Part shown: piece after piece, positions 7,944 to 39,265 of the stretch
Position numbering within the stretch: the stretch's first letter is position 1
Layout: every line of letters begins with the position of its first letter
Assembly (NCBI GenBank): GCA_032127875.1
Contig: JAQBHI010000177.1
Span: 2,609-66,608 of the forward strand
Reading direction: 5' to 3'
DNA length: 64,000 bases
From: Acidobacteriota bacterium
Lineage (GTDB): Bacteria; Acidobacteriota; Vicinamibacteria; Fen-336
Translations under genes and position numbers: made by a program
Notes under the pieces: generated by a model
Databases searched by the model: none
Told to the model about the DNA's origin: nothing
What the model saw: only the letters and a program-made list of their open reading frames with translations

Positions 7944-9344
7944 ATGCTCGTTCGCCGCCCTCTCGGCGTGGCCTTCCTGGCCCTCGGCCTGCTGCCCGCG
8001 CCGGCCGCGCACGCCGACAAGATGAGCAAGGAAGACAAGACCTGGCTCGAGTCGGTTACTCCGATCCTGCTGAAGGACGAGGAGAAGAGCTTCAAGGAGC
8101 TGAAGGACAAGTCCGAGCGCGAGGAGTTCAAGAAGATCTTCTGGGCGCGGCGCGATCCCGATCTCGACACGCCGGAGAACGAGTATCAGGTCGAGTACCA
8201 GAAGCAGGTGGCGCTGGTCGACGTGAGGTTCAAGAAGGCCGGGCAGCCAGGCTCCAGGAACGACTGCGGCAAGGTGTTCATCCTGCTGGGCGAGCCGACC
8301 TCGATCGAGAAGGACGACGAAGGGGGCGGGGAAACCTGGACCTACAAGGACAGCCCCGGCCAGACCTTCAGTGGCGGCCAGGCCAAGATCGCTTTCACCG
8401 ACGTCTGCCGCGGGCCGGTGAGCAAGGAGTTCGAGCAGCAGATCGACCGCATCGCGGAATCCAGGCTGGCCCATCCGAACATCGACTACCGCTTCGGCTC
8501 CGATGGCAAACTCGCCAAGCTGGTCGACCTGCTGCCCAAGCCGACGCCGGCGCAGGCGCTGCTCAAGACGCCGCGCCAGGACTTCCCGCTCGAGACGCAG
8601 GCCGCGTTCCTCAAGACCGAGGGTGGCGGGACGGCCCTCGTCGGGCTGGTGCGCGGCAAGGCGGAAGGCCTCGAGGTCCAGGATGCCGGCGGCAAGAAGA
8701 CCGTGCGCGTCACCGTCGTGGCGCAAGCGGTGACCGAAGATGGCAAGAACGCCGCTTTCGCGGAGCAGGAGGAGGCGGGCGACGTGAGGCCCGACGGCAG
8801 CTTCGTGGCGAGCTACCGCATGCTCCTCAAGCCCGGCAACTACAGCTTGAAAGGCGGCGCGCTCGAAGTGAAGTCGGCCAAGGGCTCGCTCGCGCAGGTT
8901 CCGGTCGAGGTGCCCGATCTCAACAAGGGCGAGCTCACTGCGACGCTGATCGTGCTGCGCGATGTCGAGGAACTGACGGAGGGCGTCGTGGACAACAACC
9001 ACGCCTACTCAGGTCTGACGCTCGCCAAGGTGAGGCTGATCCCGTACTTCGGCGCGCTCTTCACGAAGGCCGACGCACTCCAGATCTTCTTCCAGTACTA
9101 CGACGCGAAGCTTGACGAGACGACCGGCAAGGCCTCCGTCACGACTAGCGTTGCGCTCCTCCAGGGCACCAAACCCAAAGCCAAGGCGCCCGACCAGGTG
9201 TTCGATAGCGTCGTCGGCGGCAACCTCGTCGGCCCAATTCCTCTGGCCGACTACGCGCCTGGCAACTACATCGTCCGGGTCAAGCTGACCGACAGCGTCG
9301 CCAAGAAGGACATCGTCAAGGAATTCGCTTTCGAGATGCAGTAG
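7944..9344 (+). CDS. GWxTD-domain protein
   Basis: WL..V..I...EE..F..L....ERE.F...FW.RRDP..TPENE....Y; GSRNDCGKVFILLGEP; signal peptide; AGGAG RBS. Confidence 0.88.
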   Translation: MLVRRPLGVAFLALGLLPAPAAHADKMSKEDKTWLESVTPILLKDEEKSFKELKDKSEREEFKKIFWARRDPDLDTPENEYQVEYQKQVALVDVRFKKAGQPGSRNDCGKVFILLGEPTSIEKDDEGGGETWTYKDSPGQTFSGGQAKIAFTDVCRGPVSKEFEQQIDRIAESRLAHPNIDYRFGSDGKLAKLVDLLPKPTPAQALLKTPRQDFPLETQAAFLKTEGGGTALVGLVRGKAEGLEVQDAGGKKTVRVTVVAQAVTEDGKNAAFAEQEEAGDVRPDGSFVASYRMLLKPGNYSLKGGALEVKSAKGSLAQVPVEVPDLNKGELTATLIVLRDVEELTEGVVDNNHAYSGLTLAKVRLIPYFGALFTKADALQIFFQYYDAKLDETTGKASVTTSVALLQGTKPKAKAPDQVFDSVVGGNLVGPIPLADYAPGNYIVRVKLTDSVAKKDIVKEFAFEMQ

Positions 9345-9381
9345 GCAGGGCCGAAGCGCCCAGGCTTGTTCCTTCCTGGGC

Positions 9382-10560
9382 TCAGGCTGCCTTGCTGGCC
9401 TCGAGGTCGCTCTTCAGGATTTCGATCGCCTTGTCGAGGATCACGTCGGCTGCGGGGGCCGCGGCCTGATCGTCGCCCTCCGCGGCTTCGGTGAGCGCGA
9501 CCGCAACCGAAGGCTCGACGCCCTTGCCGTGGATCGGGTTGCCCTTGGGCGAGAGGTACTTCGCCACGGTCAGAACCAGGCCGCCCTCGGGAAGCGGAAC
9601 GCGCTTTTGGATCGGGGCCGACCCGTAGGTGTGTTGGCCGACTACGGGCTTGCCGGCGTCCAGCAGGGCCGCGGCCACGACTTCGGCAGGGCCGGCGGTG
9701 CCGTAGTCCACCAGCACCACGAGCGGCAGCTCCCAACCCGAGCGCTTCGGGTCGGCCGTGAGCACTCGCTCCGCGACGCGACGACCGACCACCTTCGTCA
9801 CCGTTCCGCCCTTCAGGAAGACCGCGGCCGTGTCGACACCATCGGCGGGGTCGCCGTAGGCCGCATCGCGAAGATCGAGGACCAGACTCCTGGCGCCCTC
9901 GCGTTTGAGCGACTCCACTTCGTCCCGCACGGCGTCGGCCGTCTTCGCCGAGAACTCGGCGATCTTGAGATAGCCGGGACCCGACGGCAGGACGCGGGCC
10001 TTCAGTGTCTCGGCGACCAGGCGTTCGCGGACGATCGAGATGTCGATCGGGTCGAGGCCGGGGCGCAGCACCTGGAGCTTCACGACCGAGCCGGGAGCGC
10101 CTCGCAGCAGCCGCTCGCCAACCGGAACGCTCACGCCCCGCGTATGACGGCCGTCGATGGTCTTCACGATGTCGCCGCTCCTGACGCCCGCCCTCTCCGC
10201 TGGCGAGCCGGCGCGCGGGGCCACCACCGCGAGGAAGGTGAAGCGACGCGACAACACGACGCCGACGTCCGCCTCCGTATCCTTTGCTGGCTGCTGGTAG
10301 GCCTTCCATTCCTCCGGATCGAGGTAGGCGCTCTCCGGATCCAGGGCATCGGTGAGGCCCACGCGAGCGCCCGCCATCACGCGCTCGAGGTTCACGGGAT
10401 CGACGTACGTGTCGAGGACCAGACGGACCACTTCGCCGAACACCGAAAGCTGGCCGTAGGTCGTGTCGCCCAGGACGCGCCCGAGCACGCTGCCGAGCAG
10501 GACGTAAGCACACAGGGTCGTGGACGCGAGGGCAACAAGAAGACGGGCGCGCGGGCTCAT
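9382..10560 (-). CDS. CtpA/Prc (S41A) family PDZ protein, predicted catalytically inactive
   Basis: LDPESAYL, PDZ (GSPAERAGVRSGD), GYLKIAEFS, LVLDLR, KYLSPKG, GVEP; catalytic Ser and Lys positions substituted. Confidence 0.88.
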   Translation of the reverse strand: MSPRARLLVALASTTLCAYVLLGSVLGRVLGDTTYGQLSVFGEVVRLVLDTYVDPVNLERVMAGARVGLTDALDPESAYLDPEEWKAYQQPAKDTEADVGVVLSRRFTFLAVVAPRAGSPAERAGVRSGDIVKTIDGRHTRGVSVPVGERLLRGAPGSVVKLQVLRPGLDPIDISIVRERLVAETLKARVLPSGPGYLKIAEFSAKTADAVRDEVESLKREGARSLVLDLRDAAYGDPADGVDTAAVFLKGGTVTKVVGRRVAERVLTADPKRSGWELPLVVLVDYGTAGPAEVVAAALLDAGKPVVGQHTYGSAPIQKRVPLPEGGLVLTVAKYLSPKGNPIHGKGVEPSVAVALTEAAEGDDQAAAPAADVILDKAIEILKSDLEASKAA

Positions 10561-10578
10561 CCGACCATTATAGGCTGG

Positions 10579-11724
10579 CTATCTCTCTTCCTTCTTCAAC
10601 CACTCCGTCGGGTCTTCAGGTTTGCCCTGGAAGCGCACCTCGAAGTACAGGCCGGGGCCCTCCAGGCTGCTGCCGACAAGGCCCAGCGCCTCGCCCGCGA
10701 CGAGCCTGTGTCCAGGCGCAACCGTGGCCTGCGAGAGATTCGCGTACAGCGTGTGGTGCTTGCCGCCGTGGTCGAGAACCACCATCATGCCGTAGCCCTT
10801 GAAGCGATCGGCGAACACCACCGTGCCGTCGTAGACTGCCGCCACCGGCGTGTCCGCCGCGGCTGCGATCTGGATGCCGTTCTGGATCGTATAGGTGTCG
10901 AAGCGTGGGTGCTTGCGCAGGCCGAACGGAACGCGGATGCGCCCCCTCACCGGCCACGGCAGCGAGCCCTTGAAGACGGCTGCCGGCACGCTCACGTCGC
11001 TCGGGTCCAGGCCGGCGATCAAGTCCTGCAGGCGTGCTTCGGCTTCCCGCAGCTCCTGAACGTAGGCCGCGTTCGTCTCTTTCTTCTCGACGATCGACGT
11101 CAGCAGTTCGGTCTTCCGCTTGCGGTCGGTCTCGAGCTGCCGCTGCGTCTTCTGCAGTTCACCACGCAGCGCGACGGCCTCCTGGGTCTTCGCCTCCAGT
11201 TCGGTGCGCGTCACCGCGAGCGTCACGAGGTCGCCGCGGAATGCGGCGATGCGCTGGTTGTCGCGGTGCGCCAACGCCGTCACGTAGCGGTAGCCATTCA
11301 GGAAGTCGGAGGGTCGTTCCACCGACAGCAGCAGGCGCACGTAGGAGACCTCGCCCAGCTTGTACAGGTCGCGCGCCCGGGCTTTCAGCAGCGGTCGCTC
11401 CACCTCGACCTGGGCTTCGATCTGCTTCGAACGCTTGAGTGTGGCGTCGAGTTGGGCGTTGGTCTTCTGAAGCTGCAACTGGGCCTCGCGCAGTTCCTCG
11501 CCGCGCAGCCGTACCTCGAGATCGAGGCGCTCGACCTCCCCGAGCAGGCTCTTCTCCTCCACCCGCAGTCGCGCCACCTCGCGCTCCAGCGCGGCCCGAC
11601 GTTCCTGCACCTTCTGGAGGCGCTGGTCGGCGCTGGAGGCTGTCGAGCCAGCCGACGGCGCCTGAGCGTCCGCGACGGCGGCCAGCGAGAACGCTAGTCC
11701 CAGCAGCAGCGCTAGCCGGCTCAC
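10579..11724 (-). CDS. envC: Murein hydrolase activator EnvC-like (coiled coil + degenerate M23/LytM)
   Basis: GTG overlaps upstream TGA; signal peptide, long coiled coil, KGSLPWPVRG, NGIQI, GYGMMVVLDHG, TLYANL, LYFEVR. Confidence 0.85.
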   Translation of the reverse strand: MSRLALLLGLAFSLAAVADAQAPSAGSTASSADQRLQKVQERRAALEREVARLRVEEKSLLGEVERLDLEVRLRGEELREAQLQLQKTNAQLDATLKRSKQIEAQVEVERPLLKARARDLYKLGEVSYVRLLLSVERPSDFLNGYRYVTALAHRDNQRIAAFRGDLVTLAVTRTELEAKTQEAVALRGELQKTQRQLETDRKRKTELLTSIVEKKETNAAYVQELREAEARLQDLIAGLDPSDVSVPAAVFKGSLPWPVRGRIRVPFGLRKHPRFDTYTIQNGIQIAAAADTPVAAVYDGTVVFADRFKGYGMMVVLDHGGKHHTLYANLSQATVAPGHRLVAGEALGLVGSSLEGPGLYFEVRFQGKPEDPTEWLKKEER

Positions 11725-24524: not shown

Positions 24525-25909
<1,385 letters not shown>

Positions 25910-25913
<4 letters not shown>

Positions 25914-30816: not shown

Positions 30817-32523
30817 CTACTTGGGAAGCGGCGGAATGCTGATCCGCAGGTCTCCGTCGTCAGTCTCGAGCAGCACGTCGGTCGACTCGACAGCCTTCAC
30901 GACCGCGTTCGCCAGCCGCTCGCCCGCGCGGTAGGTGAGCAGCGCGCCATTGGGCGAGTACGCGAAGACCGAGTACCCGGCGCCGCTGGTGGCGATCCCC
31001 GCGGGCTCGAACTCCAGGAGCGAGAGATCCGGCGCGCGCAGCACCAACCGCGGCGCAACCCCTTCCGCCGCCACGGGCAGCGGCGTTTCGCCCGAGCCTC
31101 CGGGGCGTGTGAGCGTGCGGCGGTCCTCCTCGAGTCGTTCTGTGAGGCCTGCGCACTCGAGGACGGCGGCACGCAGGGCCGCCAGCGGCATGTCCCTGAC
31201 CCAAACGGAGGCGCGCCCAAGGAAGCCAGGCGGCCCGAGTGAGGCGAGGCCCGGGTCCACGTCGGTCATTACCGCGAGGATGTCCCGGACGCTGGCGCGC
31301 TTCAGCTCGAAACTGGCGATGGCGGTCGAAAGCGGCGGCGCCTGGTCGACGGGCGCGGGCCGGCTCCCTTTCGGCGCCGACTTCTTCGCCGGCGGGTTCT
31401 CCCCATTCGCCTTCGAGACGCGCCGGATCAGCCCAGCTTCGGAGATGCGCAGGTTGGCGCTCTTCGCGAGGCCGGCCAGCGCCTCCTCGAGGCTCACCCG
31501 TGCGAACTCCACGTGGACTCGGCCCGCGACATCGCCGTCCACGAGAAAGCCCTGGCCTGTCAGGTTGTGCAGGACGCGAAAGACGTCGGGAAGATCGGTG
31601 TCCCGCAGCCGCAGGCTGAGCGGCCCGTGGCCAGGCGTCCTGGGGGTCGCTCCGCGCACGACGGCGATGCGCGTGGCGTCGCGATCGACGGCGCACGAGG
31701 CATCCTGCTCTTCGAAAGGATCCTCCGTCGGGAGCGGCAACTCGGCCTCGGGCCCCACCACCGGGCTCGTGCCGCGCGCCTCGAAGCGCAGACAGGCCCC
31801 CTGGCGGGTCATCAGGAACTGCGAGAGCCGGAAGAAGCCGCGTTCGAGCCGGGACTCCAGCCCATGGGCCGAGGCATTGCCGATGGTCAGGCCACGGATC
31901 GAGAACTCTTCTCCGAGCACTGCCGAGATCAGCAGCACCGGCCGGTCGCGGACGACCGCCGACAGTTCCGACAGGAACACGCGCGGGTTACGGCGCGCGC
32001 GTCTCAGGGCGGCGATCATCTCCGACTTCGCGAGGGCCAGCGCCTGATCCGCCACGAACGCGTCGGCTTGCGGCCGCGGCATCCCGCTCGCGCGGGCTCG
32101 CGTGCCTTCGGGTGGCTGAGGCAGCGGCGCCCGCAGTGGTCGAAACGGAACCCTGATCACCGCCGTCAGCCGCACCGCATCGCCCGGGGTTGCCGTGAGC
32201 GTGAGGTTGTCGACGTCGAGCAGCCGGTGAGAGAGGGCCACCTGCCGGAAGAATCGGTCTATGTCGGCGTAGCGCCCGACGCCGGAGACATCGACGAGCA
32301 CGTCTCCACGCGGGCCGTTTTCGATCGGCGGGCGCGCGAGGGCCTCCACCGAGAACAGCTGTGCGGCGTCGGCGAGGTCGTGAACCAGTGCGGCATCGCC
32401 TGTGGGATTCGCGGCATCGGGCAGGATTCGCCGCAACGTCTCCAGGCGCCGGTCGAGAAGCAGGCGTTCCTCGCTGAAGGGACGTACCACCGAAGACGCG
32501 GCCAGCACCAGGGCAAGAAGCAT
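30817..32523 (-). CDS. Multidomain type IV pilus alignment-like fusion protein (PilO-like, PilN-like, two secretin N0/STN-like, PilP-like)
   Basis: LRRILP...G.Y.DI.RFF..VA...RLL.V.NL.L (PilO); RRNP..FL.EL...V.L.S...F.IRG (PilN); LSL.LRD.DL.DVFR.L...TG..F.VDGDV.GRV (N0); LSL.EF...GI......Y..GE.L.N.VV..V....V (PilP). Confidence 0.7.
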   Translation of the reverse strand: MLLALVLAASSVVRPFSEERLLLDRRLETLRRILPDAANPTGDAALVHDLADAAQLFSVEALARPPIENGPRGDVLVDVSGVGRYADIDRFFRQVALSHRLLDVDNLTLTATPGDAVRLTAVIRVPFRPLRAPLPQPPEGTRARASGMPRPQADAFVADQALALAKSEMIAALRRARRNPRVFLSELSAVVRDRPVLLISAVLGEEFSIRGLTIGNASAHGLESRLERGFFRLSQFLMTRQGACLRFEARGTSPVVGPEAELPLPTEDPFEEQDASCAVDRDATRIAVVRGATPRTPGHGPLSLRLRDTDLPDVFRVLHNLTGQGFLVDGDVAGRVHVEFARVSLEEALAGLAKSANLRISEAGLIRRVSKANGENPPAKKSAPKGSRPAPVDQAPPLSTAIASFELKRASVRDILAVMTDVDPGLASLGPPGFLGRASVWVRDMPLAALRAAVLECAGLTERLEEDRRTLTRPGGSGETPLPVAAEGVAPRLVLRAPDLSLLEFEPAGIATSGAGYSVFAYSPNGALLTYRAGERLANAVVKAVESTDVLLETDDGDLRISIPPLPK

Positions 32524-32884: not shown

Positions 32885-32938
32885 TTGACAAGCGCCGGCC
32901 CGGATCGCTAGCATTATGAATATGAAACTCACGTTCAT
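32885..32938 (+). promoter_or_regulatory. Sigma-70 promoter with adjacent Fur-box-like inverted repeat
   Basis: TTGACA (32885-32890), 18 bp, TAGCAT (32909-32914); ATGAATATGA-AAC-TCACGTTCAT (32916-32938), 8/10 inverted repeat. Confidence 0.65.
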
Positions 32939-37828: not shown

Positions 37829-38323
37829 CTACTCGTCGTAGTCGTCGTAGCCGCCGCCCCGCCGCCGGGTAGGAACCGCCTTGTTGACGCTGCGCGCCGG
37901 CTTTTGCTTGAAGCGGCGCCCTTCGCGCTTCTCTTCCTTGAAGTCGGGCGGCGGGAAAGGCATCTCGCCGGTTCCGCCACGGCCGAACGAAGGCCGGTCG
38001 GGCCGGAAGGCTGGCCGGACCGGGGCCGCCCCTACCGGTCGGGGCGGGCGGCTGTCGGCCTCGTTGACGCGCAGCGGCCGTCCCTTCATGTCCTTGCCGT
38101 TCAGCAACTCGATCGACTTGGCCGCCGACTCGTCGCTGTCGAACTCGACGAACGCGAAGCCGCGGGGCCGACCCGTCTCGCGGTCGGTTGGGACCTTGGC
38201 GTCCACCACCTTGCCGGCCGCGCCAAAAATCTGCATGAGCTCGTCGCGAGTCACGTCATAGCTGAGGTTCCCCACGAACACCTTGTTCGAAATGGCCCTG
38301 ATCTCCCCGAAAGCAACCGCCAT
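37829..38323 (-). CDS. RRM-domain RNA-binding protein (start probably ATT at 38293)
   Basis: RNP2 VFVGNL, RNP1 RGFAFVEF, DRETGR, LNG..GR.LRVNEA. Confidence 0.93.
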   Translation of the reverse strand: MAVAFGEIRAISNKVFVGNLSYDVTRDELMQIFGAAGKVVDAKVPTDRETGRPRGFAFVEFDSDESAAKSIELLNGKDMKGRPLRVNEADSRPPRPVGAAPVRPAFRPDRPSFGRGGTGEMPFPPPDFKEEKREGRRFKQKPARSVNKAVPTRRRGGGYDDYDE

Positions 38324-38488
38324 ACGGTCGCGAAATCTCGCAGGACTGTAGCAGAAAGCCCGCAGGATGCCAATGTTCGCTGGATTCTGATCCAGCGCCT
38401 GCCAACCCTCCTCGGGCGAGCGGCGTCTACCGCCGAGCCTAACCTCGGCACCGCGAGGCCCAAACTGTGTCCCATATACTGGCGGCAC

Positions 38489-39265
38489 GTGCTCCTGCTC
38501 CGCCAGACGGCCGTGCTGGTCCTCGTCCTCGCGCGCATGGCGGCCGCCGCCGACCTCGAGACGCCCGCCGGGGACGTGCATGAGCTGCCACGCCGTGTGC
38601 GCCGCATCGTGATCCACGCGCTCGGCAACCCCGCATACGAGGAGCCTCGACGCCGCTGGATGTTCCTGACGCCCCCGCAGACCCAGCGACTCTGGCGTCC
38701 AGGGTTCGGGGCGCATTGGATCGTCTGGACGGACGGCTCGATCTGGCCACGGCATCCCCGGCCAGGCGAGGATCCCTCGTTCCTGCCCGCGGCTGGTCCC
38801 ACGGATGAGGAGTCGCGTCGCCGCCTGGCCATGCAGGCGGCGCCTGTCTACTCCCACCTCCATCACGGCAACTCGAACTCCATCGGCATCGAGGTCGCGC
38901 ATTCGGGCCGAGCGGACGATCCGGTCCCGCCGGCACAGGCACGCGCGCTGGCCTGGCTGCTCGGAACCCTGTTGGAGATATCGCGCGGGCGCCTCACCAC
39001 CGCGGACGTCTATGGCCACAAAGACCTGGATCTCCGGCCCGCCTACGTCGAAGCAAGCTGCGTACGCCCGGGATGTCCGGTGTTTGCGGATGCAGAGGGG
39101 CGGACCTATCGCCGCCGCGTCGATCCACCGGAAGCGATCTTCGCGGCACTCGCCAGAGAGGGTCTGGTGATCTCTCGGCGAGCACGCGAGGACGACGGCG
39201 AGCTGCTCCGCGCGGAAGCCCTCGGCGCTCTGCGAGCACAGGTTGCCCGCGAACGGGCCCCCTGA
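38489..39265 (+). CDS. N-acetylmuramoyl-L-alanine amidase (Amidase_2), secreted
   Basis: IVIH, HWIV..DG.I, H..GN..SIGIE, AQ...L..L, YGHKD; signal peptide from GTG 38489. Confidence 0.8.
   Translation: MLLLRQTAVLVLVLARMAAAADLETPAGDVHELPRRVRRIVIHALGNPAYEEPRRRWMFLTPPQTQRLWRPGFGAHWIVWTDGSIWPRHPRPGEDPSFLPAAGPTDEESRRRLAMQAAPVYSHLHHGNSNSIGIEVAHSGRADDPVPPAQARALAWLLGTLLEISRGRLTTADVYGHKDLDLRPAYVEASCVRPGCPVFADAEGRTYRRRVDPPEAIFAALAREGLVISRRAREDDGELLRAEALGALRAQVARERAP

Follow-up and report, generated by a model that had tools for sequence, protein, structure and literature searches.

The locus encodes a five-domain protein

The window analysed here is a 64,000-nucleotide stretch of contig JAQBHI010000177.1 (assembly GCA_032127875.1) from an Acidobacteriota bacterium, and our subject is a single gene on its minus strand, at 30817..32523. 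The gene encodes a 568-amino-acid protein, hereafter the fusion protein, in which domains of the PilO, PilN and PilP type, known from the alignment complex of type IVa pili, are joined in one chain with two N0 domains of the secretin type. It is nearly certain that this architecture (PilO-PilN-N0-N0-PilP) is right and that the gene is genuine. The five domains each have a recognizable homologue, the gene is conserved and stands in an orphan position, and the same genome carries a separate and complete pilMNOPQ set. A first-pass annotation, made from the letters of this DNA, had delimited the same open reading frame (ORF) without naming a strand; its limits hold, and the strand is minus. Because the window DNA is rich in G+C (~68%) and carries long shadow ORFs on the opposite strand (one of 468 amino acids, for example), the choice of frame must be backed by evidence. 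The start is fixed by an in-frame TAA 5 codons before the ATG, which makes a longer one impossible. The coding sequence and the parts of its product, with the source of each assignment, are as follows.

30817..32523, minus: whole coding sequence, 568 codons plus stop, ATG at 32523
32485..32523, minus: hydrophobic N-terminus, residues 1-13 (MLLALVLAASSVV), a probable export signal without a positively charged n-region (sequence)
32134..32484, minus: D1, residues 14-130, PilO-like, a coiled-coil helix and an alpha-beta-beta-alpha-beta-beta core (Pfam, fold, hhalign)
31759..32091, minus: D2, residues 145-255, PilN-like, with a topology like that of D1 and the invariant C244 (model topology, hhalign)
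31633..31758, minus: linker, residues 256-297, conserved, of low model confidence, with ELPLP.EDPF and the invariant C277 (alignments, model)
31405..31632, minus: D3, residues 298-373, secretin-type N0/STN domain (Pfam, fold, hhalign)
31099..31332, minus: D4, residues 398-475, second N0/STN domain, a diverged duplicate of D3 (alignment, model, hhalign)
30820..31041, minus: D5, residues 495-568, beta domain of the PilP / GspC homology-region (HR) type (separate model, Foldseek, hhalign)

Across 44 close members of the family the mean column identity is 64%, and one helix of D1 (ERLLLDRRLETLRRILPD) is nearly invariant. The linker between D2 and D3 contains the motifs ELPLP.EDPF and CxxDRD, and its combination of conservation and low model confidence is typical of a binding segment, which it may be; the linker between D3 and D4 (residues 374-397) is variable and of low complexity. 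The DPF element at residues 268-270, likened to PilP at first pass, held up as an invariant or near-invariant motif of the close family but not beyond it, as distant relatives carry LFD instead.

Each domain resembles a type IVa pilus protein of the same genome

The first-pass annotation had proposed looking for a canonical pilMNOPQ operon alongside the fusion. The complete set is present in the same genome, where pilM, pilN, pilO, pilP and pilQ lie in a row on contig C158, apart from the fusion gene. We cut five domain profiles from two alignments of the family, A1 (44 close members) and A2 (35 members, distant ones included), and compared them by hhalign with own-genome proteins, namely PilN, PilO, a 254-amino-acid ORF between pilO and pilQ, PilQ and a T2SSM_b protein. 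The values for the corresponding pairs were these.

D1 against own PilO: 93.8% (A1) and 90.3% (A2); E 1.8e-7 and 1.5e-6; 107-108 columns
D2 against own PilN: 28% (A1) and 14% (A2); E 6e-4 and 2e-3
D3 against own PilQ 370-440 (N0): 95.4% (A1) and 95.3% (A2); E 1.7e-8 and 2.3e-8
D4 against own PilQ 367-441 (N0): 9.6% (A1) and 98.5% (A2); E 0.0034 and 3.4e-15
D5 against residues 165-230 of the 254-amino-acid ORF: 5.6% (A1) and 89.3% (A2); E 0.0068 and 2.1e-6

The remaining cells of the matrix stayed at or below 2.4%, save D1 against T2SSM_b (62%), as the relatedness of GspM and PilO would lead one to expect. The closest relative of each domain, within the set of own-genome proteins compared, was the corresponding type IVa pilus protein, and the match of the D5 profile identifies the 254-amino-acid ORF as the PilP of this genome.

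Residues 16-128 had been read as PilO-like at first pass, and hhalign, fold and Pfam all bear this out. The AlphaFold2 model, built with 44 homologues (mean predicted local distance difference test score (pLDDT) 81, predicted template modelling score 0.52), comprises five folded domains with low-confidence linkers, and a Foldseek search with the whole model placed PilO (2rjz, 5uvr, 3jc8_O) and N0 domains (4ar0, 7pmp, 4e9j) on top. With the single protein as query, Pfam returned GspD_N0 at E=0.011 and PilO (PF04350) at 14.4 bits and E=0.042, under the cut-off of 22, and the NCBIfam model for PilQ matched at E=5.8e-4. PilO was matched by 15 of the 44 close members (E<=0.01), STN by 13 and N0 by 9; for the 35 diverse members the counts were 26 for GspD_N0 (best 7.9e-13), 23 for STN and 9 for PilO (E<=1), and the best PilO match of any family member reached 1.6e-6. 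As judged from these matches, D1 is homologous to the PilO domain, and the whole protein is not a member of the PilO family.

For D2, which had been called PilN-like at residues 160-253, the outcome was mixed, and the call is weakly confirmed. In the AlphaFold2 model its topology (helix-alpha-beta-beta-alpha-beta-beta) is the same as that of D1, and in a third alignment (A6) its profile matched own PilN at 49% (E 1.7e-4) and own PilO at 1.4%; own PilO reached only 2.4% with A1 and 0.4% with A2, and the alignments with PilN span 70-89 columns. On the other side, Pfam PilN (PF05137) was matched by none of the 44 + 35 members, the D2 profile found nothing but chance-level matches (E>=0.55) among PDB sequences, and its Atlas neighbours PilN and PilO2 scored only 0.80.

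The two N0 domains proposed at residues 300-370 and 402-473 were recovered both by the Pfam counts given above and by hhalign. D3 and D4 align to the N0 domain of PilQ (367-441) and not to N1, and they align to each other at 97.6% (E 1.4e-11, A2), with the control pairs D1-D3 and D2-D5 at or below 0.1%. A profile of the family matched GspD N0-N1 and PilQ chains in the PDB at E=3.7e-4 to 2e-2 (GspD N0-N1 at 3.7e-4).

The last 95 residues were modelled separately from 30 sequences (pLDDT 86.6). The first 12 PDB matches listed by Foldseek for the D5 model were all PilP, GspC-HR, LspC or GspB/OutB, at a probability of 0.99-1.00, and the match to 3oss_C had a TM-score of 0.78 (the best TM-score normalised to the target), a root mean square deviation of 2.6 A and 27% identity. 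The PilP/GspC-HR-like character assigned to residues 499-565 at first pass therefore stands on both fold and own-genome PilP (89.3%). The Pfam PilP profile (PF04351) matched nothing in this genome or in the control genomes and is hence uninformative. The absence of a secretin barrel, also noted at first pass, was upheld: the chain ends with the HR domain, and neither the secretin pore (PF00263) nor Secretin_N was matched at E<=10 in the fusion protein, with PF00263 matched by all three true secretins of the same genome.

We also assessed docking within the chain by complex prediction. For D3-D4 paired with D5 the score was 0.52 (runs 0.48-0.59), and all three controls gave 0.00; at least 77% of the contacts were shared among runs, and the partner pLDDT was at least 74. 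The pass mark used was reached by 58 of 80 solved complexes and by 2 of 110 mismatched pairs; a pass at or below 0.60 was seen for only 7 of the 80 solved complexes and for both of the passing mismatches. As GspC-GspD and PilP-PilQ complexes have already been solved, the pass may reflect no more than likeness to those structures. The prediction thus lends weak support to docking of the HR domain D5 on the N0 pair of its own chain. The first pass had offered a periplasmic adaptor, decoy or modulator of a pilus or type II machine, or a self-assembling scaffold, as possible functions; computation bears, weakly, on self-docking only.

A probable signal peptide and a candidate disulfide

The short hydrophobic N-terminus seen at first pass is present, but a PilO-type membrane anchor is a less likely identity for it than a signal peptide. 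In distant relatives the same place is taken by classic n-h-c signal peptides, which start basic, continue with a hydrophobic core and close on an A-x-A-like end, and for this reason the protein is probably soluble. PilN bears a PilM-binding motif at its N-terminus. D2 is internal to the chain, so it can have neither a transmembrane helix nor a PilM-binding N-terminus, and D5 can have no membrane anchor because it is C-terminal within an exported chain. PilO and PilN are described (PMC10823254) as having a short cytoplasmic N-terminus, one transmembrane helix and a periplasmic coiled coil and core. The fusion protein departs from this bitopic topology, with only 13 hydrophobic residues before D1. 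We infer a Sec-exported, soluble periplasmic protein, from which the signal peptide would be cleaved. Two cysteines are conserved without exception across the four alignments, C244 in the final strand of D2 and C277 in the linker after it, and they form a candidate periplasmic disulfide.

The fusion gene is a core gene of one order

A word-indexed protein search scored 8000 proteins, 611 of them at E<=0.001; the best 120 of those 611 were 551-607 amino acids long, with 56-100% identity and 91-100% coverage of the query. An exhaustive HMMER search over 1.84 billion cluster representatives gave 323 matches at E<=0.001, 187 at 1e-10 and 50 at 1e-30, including full-length relatives of 550-630 amino acids with 21-29% identity in alignment A2. 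Database names for the family are 'hypothetical protein' and, once, 'PilO'.

Two doubts had been raised at first pass, namely that the segments might not match Pil or secretin folds and that the fusion might exist only in this assembly, as a chimeric join. The segments do match, and a full-length orthologue was found in 68 of the 78 genomes of the order, nearly always in single copy and mostly without internal stops. Orthologues were present in 30 of the 33 genomes of the order that are at least 90% complete and at most 5% contaminated, and in 62 of its 72 genomes in a class sample of 201 (G000 uncounted). In a phylum sample of 301 genomes, searched with the diverse profile, full-length matches were confined to the family of the window (3/3), and the other matches fell in the N0 region of secretin-sized ORFs and, in one case, in a BlaR1-like protein; the tallies of the phylum sample and the class-wide secretin count given below include four genomes flagged as unpublished, on which none of the individual claims depends. 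One member of the distant branch is labelled Thermoanaerobaculia by its source. The 43 related loci compared below come from independent assemblies, and DNA of the gene also occurs in sediment metagenomes from three or more studies other than the possible source. None of the 11 runs listed as holding that DNA is an RNA run, which says nothing about expression either way.

In three very long relatives, P0170 (1959 amino acids), P0169 (1557) and P0183 (1551), the family region is accompanied by other parts; in P0170 an Rce1-like protease domain occupies 418-509, and PilO is matched additionally at 1187-1300. Such proteins could be genuine fusions, or else gene calls that ran on in G+C-rich contigs. 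As Rosetta-stone hints to a partner, the relatives of 1551-1959 amino acids yielded only STN/N0, PilO and the one Rce1-like match, and some shorter 'fusions', to peptidase S9 or pyridoxamine oxidase, seem to be run-on gene calls; both lines were set aside.

A paralogous architecture was seen in another genome of the order (G335:C54, ORF 726-2321, minus), with a hydrophobic N-terminus, N0-N0-HR and, by eye, a C-terminal TPR-like region; it has no PilO or PilN modules, and related matches occur at G303:C20 and G334:C63. The G335 paralogue keeps N0-N0-HR with TPR repeats in place of D1-D2, which suggests that the three domains work together as a movable functional cassette.

Pilus and secretin machines in the same genome and class

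Besides the pil operon, the genome has a type II secretion-like operon with an ATPase, T2SSM_b, a secretin with a cohesin tail, a transglycosylase and a pseudopilin. The secretin of this operon (contig C93, L088, 6017-8320, plus) carries a C-terminal cohesin (PF00963, E 3.3e-10) and an N-terminal FecR_C match; a cohesin on a secretin is unusual. A further secretin (contig C93, L087, 6714-8483, minus) is an orphan lipoprotein with the lipobox LGAC, TPR repeats, Secretin_N and Secretin, and with an N0-like stretch that is visible by eye and missed by Pfam. It overlaps by 4 bases an upstream ORF (8480-11275, minus) whose C-terminus is LolA-like, and no pilus or secretion genes adjoining it were seen at this locus. 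In a single-contig genome of the order that lacks the fusion, the PilM match (G354:C1:3701463-3706724) covers only residues 89-242 (E 2.4e-72; the ORF has 319 amino acids). This genome does have PilQ, and partial degradation of its pil operon is possible.

N0/STN pairs also occur elsewhere in the phylum. A BlaR1/M56-type membrane protein (L059, G161:C4, ORF 493-2085, plus) has, by eye, an HExxH-like region ('AHEVAHI') and ends in two tandem STN/N0-like domains that carry a D.PWD..L motif. Such pairs thus serve as periplasmic modules outside secretins in Acidobacteriota. The first-pass claim that alignment parts are concatenated with their N0 docking target, without a pore, is sustained by own-genome homology, by the fold searches and by the synteny of 43 + 2 loci; given N0/STN tandems outside secretins in the phylum, 'PilP docking target' is one reading of D3-D4 and not the sole one.

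Genomic neighbourhood

The gene was described at first pass as an orphan with no pilM, pilQ or pilin in the window. A genome-wide Pfam search for Secretin, PilO, PilN and PilM_2 agrees, as on the contig of the window it matched only the fusion gene; pilins were not searched for. The flanking genes are these.

Downstream, convergent with the fusion gene: two 2-oxoacid:ferredoxin oxidoreductase (POR) genes (Pfam POR_N/POR/PFOR_II and TPP_enzyme_C)
Upstream, divergent from the fusion gene: ORF at 32916, no Pfam match

With convergent POR genes downstream and a divergent ORF upstream, the fusion gene is monocistronic. For the comparison of context, 1949 ORFs, all 110 amino acids or longer, were matched to three reference loci. 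An ORF overlapping an RRM gene, ~5 kb upstream, recurs in 32 of the 43 related loci, a count to which matches from low-complexity sequence may also contribute. At this position in the window (37829-39019, minus), the RRM_1 RNA-binding domain is confined to residues 247-317 of a long ORF, and the true gene is probably the short C-terminal part. Elsewhere in the window (24525-25913, minus), an NtrC-type sigma-54 activator is split over two ORFs in different frames: 25218-25913 holds the receiver and positions 1-83 of Sigma54_activat, 24525-25169 holds positions 103-167, the lid and the helix-turn-helix, and ~20 profile positions are absent around 25170-25217. The split is a frameshift, a sequencing error or a pseudogene.

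Comparison with known docking systems

The first-pass annotation knew of no described protein with this architecture, and in the full-text literature, supplements not covered, we likewise found no paper describing PilO/PilN-type, N0 and HR domains in one protein. Every part is known already; what is new is the architecture, together with the membrane-free state and the orphan position.

The type IVa PilN-PilO-PilP/PilQ N0 assembly of P. aeruginosa, N. meningitidis and M. xanthus (2rjz, 5uvr, 2lc4, 2y4y, 4ar0, 3jc8) is homologous to all five modules, and the C-terminal domain of PilP is reported by Berry et al. 2012 (PMC3441751) to bind the first alpha/beta domain of PilQ. Unlike that complex, the fusion is one polypeptide rather than four, with the order O-N-N0-N0-P and a duplicated N0, and it has no transmembrane anchors, PilM-binding N-terminus, lipobox, AMIN, N1 or secretin pore. 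It also appears to be exported by a signal peptide, is encoded alone and is additional to a complete canonical set. From the type II complex the fusion differs as it does from the pilus complex, and it presumably lacks the PDZ domain or coiled-coil tail of GspC as well. In that complex, GspL/GspM accompany the GspC HR on the N0 of GspD (3oss, 6hcg, 4e9j; PMC3169554), and D5 is nearest to the GspC HR of 3oss.

Several accessory or single-chain proteins offer partial parallels. GspB/OutB of Dickeya (4wfw; PMC9239104) is an accessory HR protein that binds the secretin N0 and helps to place the pore. It resembles the fusion as an extra HR-domain protein beside GspC/PilP, and 4wfw was the rank 12 fold match of D5; unlike the fusion, OutB is anchored in the inner membrane, cross-links to peptidoglycan and has no N0 or PilO/N modules. 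SlkA and SlkB of P. aeruginosa are, according to PMC13392014, soluble periplasmic plugs that sit in undocked PilQ until the inner-membrane complex docks; they are reported mainly from Gammaproteobacteria, and the authors speculate that bacteria without Slk have other kinds of plug. The likeness to Slk is one of concept, and no homology is claimed. Another single protein that bridges the inner membrane to a secretin is RcpC, whose folds we take to be unrelated to those of PilN, PilO and PilP. PMC12307814 presents RcpC as the one-protein alignment complex of the Tad pilus, a membrane-anchored dodecamer encoded in the tad operon; anchoring and operon set it apart from the fusion. Finally, the Helicobacter flagellar cage of PilM/N/O shares with the fusion the use of pilus alignment proteins outside a pilus machine; there (PMC10823254), the cage proteins are separate, membrane-anchored and encoded in an operon, and the present genome shows no flagellar genes (FliG_C, flagellin).

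Proposed role of the fusion protein

The reading that we favour, tentatively and at rather less than even confidence, is that the fusion protein is a soluble, periplasmic, single-chain and self-docking replica of the type IVa pilus alignment complex, acting as an accessory of secretin machines; this caution covers the whole statement, accessory role included. The link to secretin machines is one that homology alone suggests. The chain combines PilO-like and PilN-like modules, two N0 domains and a PilP-type HR domain and leaves out membrane anchors, PilM-binding tail and secretin pore; its hydrophobic N-terminus would act as a signal peptide, and C244 and C277 may form a disulfide in the periplasm. 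Proteins that interact are, when fused, usually partners within the chain, and D1 and D2 are on this ground read as an internal PilO:PilN pair and D5 as docked on N0. D1 would thus pair with D2 as PilO does with PilN, and D5 would dock on one of the two N0 domains as PilP does on the N0 of PilQ. One N0 domain would then stay free, as would the N-terminal helix and the linker, both conserved, and these free parts could contact the secretin machines, namely the type IVa pilus, the type II secretion-like system and the orphan lipoprotein secretin. The protein might then serve as a stand-in or spacer at the N0/HR ring while the inner-membrane platform is undocked, a part for which the Slk plugs offer a precedent in concept.

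A number of observations weigh against this reading. D2 is the weakest module, for which the evidence for PilN is modest, and no similarity between D1 and D2 that would mark an internal duplication was detectable by hhalign (0.1-0.3%). In the close family, the 13-residue hydrophobic stretch is not preceded by a basic n-region. The fusion was found in 0 of the 128 genomes from 16 other families of the class, and orthologues of the orphan secretin occur in 198 of the 201 class genomes, so that the machines exist without the fusion. Of five genomes of the order without the fusion, at least four retain a PilQ orthologue, and a single-contig genome is among these. Over the 78 genomes of the order, 58 have both the fusion and PilM, 10 the fusion only, 6 PilM only and 4 neither, and strict coupling of the two is absent, in a comparison confounded by gaps in metagenome-assembled genomes. 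The N0/STN tandem of the BlaR1/M56-like sensor means that such domains need not point to pili. Pilus or secretion genes were not found as conserved neighbours in the 43 related loci, the 2 distant loci or the flanks of the window: the only conserved genes adjoining the fusion gene are the two POR genes (28/43 and 29/43 related loci), and in the two long loci of distant relatives, out of nine obtained in one metagenome scan, the neighbours are a Na/H exchanger, RecO, a phosphatase and a PD40 protein.

A further proposal, which we regard as unlikely, is that the protein is a new kind of secretin accessory, either a soluble, self-docking surrogate of the inner-membrane docking interface or a chain that runs head to tail into a periplasmic ring of its own. 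As a surrogate, it would bind beneath secretin rings before they couple to the platform or after they have uncoupled from it, and would hold the N0 ring in shape or seal it, much as Slk plugs do. In the alternative to secretin binding, the HR domain would dock on the free N0 of the next chain and so build the ring.

Three other ideas were rejected. A split secretin, in which the fusion would supply N0 in trans to the C93 secretin, is countered by the N0-like stretch that this secretin has, by eye, of its own, and further by the spread of the secretin across 198/201 class genomes against the restriction of the fusion to one order. Replacement of missing PilN, PilO and PilP is excluded by a genome that holds pilM, pilN, pilO, the 254-amino-acid PilP and pilQ. 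A flagellar cage was discarded because FliG_C and flagellin were not found in a genome that is 97.4% complete.

Among the rival explanations, the one that survives best, possible though on balance doubtful, is that of a stand-alone envelope scaffold built from recruited pilus domains, unrelated to pili or type II secretion and perhaps self-assembling head to tail. The orphan position in all 45 loci examined fits such a scaffold, as do the order-specific spread, unlike that of the class-wide secretin, and the lack of strict coupling to PilM or PilQ; the 64% mean column identity seems high, as an impression, next to alignment-complex proteins, two N0 domains per HR domain leave one N0 free for chain formation, and the Helicobacter cage (PMC10823254) is a precedent for exaptation. 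Yet neither a partner nor a structure can be named for the scaffold, its flagellar version fails on the missing FliG_C and flagellin, and each domain remains closest, among the own-genome proteins compared, to the matching type IVa pilus protein.

An improbable alternative is a negative regulator or decoy, a soluble mimic that would titrate PilP, PilN/O or the secretin N0 and so limit assembly or docking of the machine. The protein does present all periplasmic alignment interfaces without transmembrane anchor, PilM-binding tail or pore, and it is encoded apart from the operon, as separately controlled regulators often are. However, if D5 sits on its own N0, as the docking prediction weakly suggests, and D1 on D2, little is left for titration; a decoy should track the sequence of its target, yet identity to the own Pil proteins lies below BLAST-level detection and is reached by profile methods only; and a constitutive structural role would be more in keeping with a gene that is single-copy and core to an order.

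More improbable still is a role in periplasmic signalling or sensing, in which the N0/STN pair would relay a signal between proteins of the envelope, as in TonB-dependent transducers, FecR or a BlaR1-like sensor, and the PilO/N-like part would be an oligomerisation platform. The BlaR1/M56-type protein of Acidobacteriota with its two STN domains has the D.PWD..L motif also found in D4 of distant relatives, and one family member gave a weak FecR_C match (E=0.045), but the protein has no transmembrane or cytoplasmic output domain, the loci read have no adjoining sigma, anti-sigma or TonB-receptor gene, and we know of no HR domain or PilO/PilN module in pathways of the TonB, FecR or BlaR1 type. 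An artefact, either a chance ORF favoured by 68% G+C and long shadow ORFs or a chimera made by assembly or a lost stop codon, is already refuted by same-length orthologues in 68/78 genomes of the order, one copy each, by the 43 independently assembled loci, by the occurrence of the DNA in sediment metagenomes from three or more studies other than the possible source, and by the confident five-domain fold.

The alignment and docking of platform and secretin in type IV pili and type II secretion systems are still under study, and the weak contacts concerned are shared out among four proteins. In the fusion protein, the contacts made in the periplasm (PilO:PilN and PilP on N0) are represented in one soluble chain that is under selection across an order. 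If the internal pairings hold, the fusion protein would be a natural single-chain PilNOP-N0 object, probably well behaved, for the structure of the complete alignment interface. Its presence raises the question of why a cell with pilMNOPQ also keeps a membrane-free copy of the interface. Were the protein to hold the place of the platform on undocked secretins, or to plug them, a barrier-protecting principle known until now from Pseudomonas would become more general; if its role lies elsewhere, it would join the Helicobacter flagellar cage as a second example of repurposed pilus alignment parts. Should the surrogate be real, the alignment complex can exist as an autonomous, membrane-free module.

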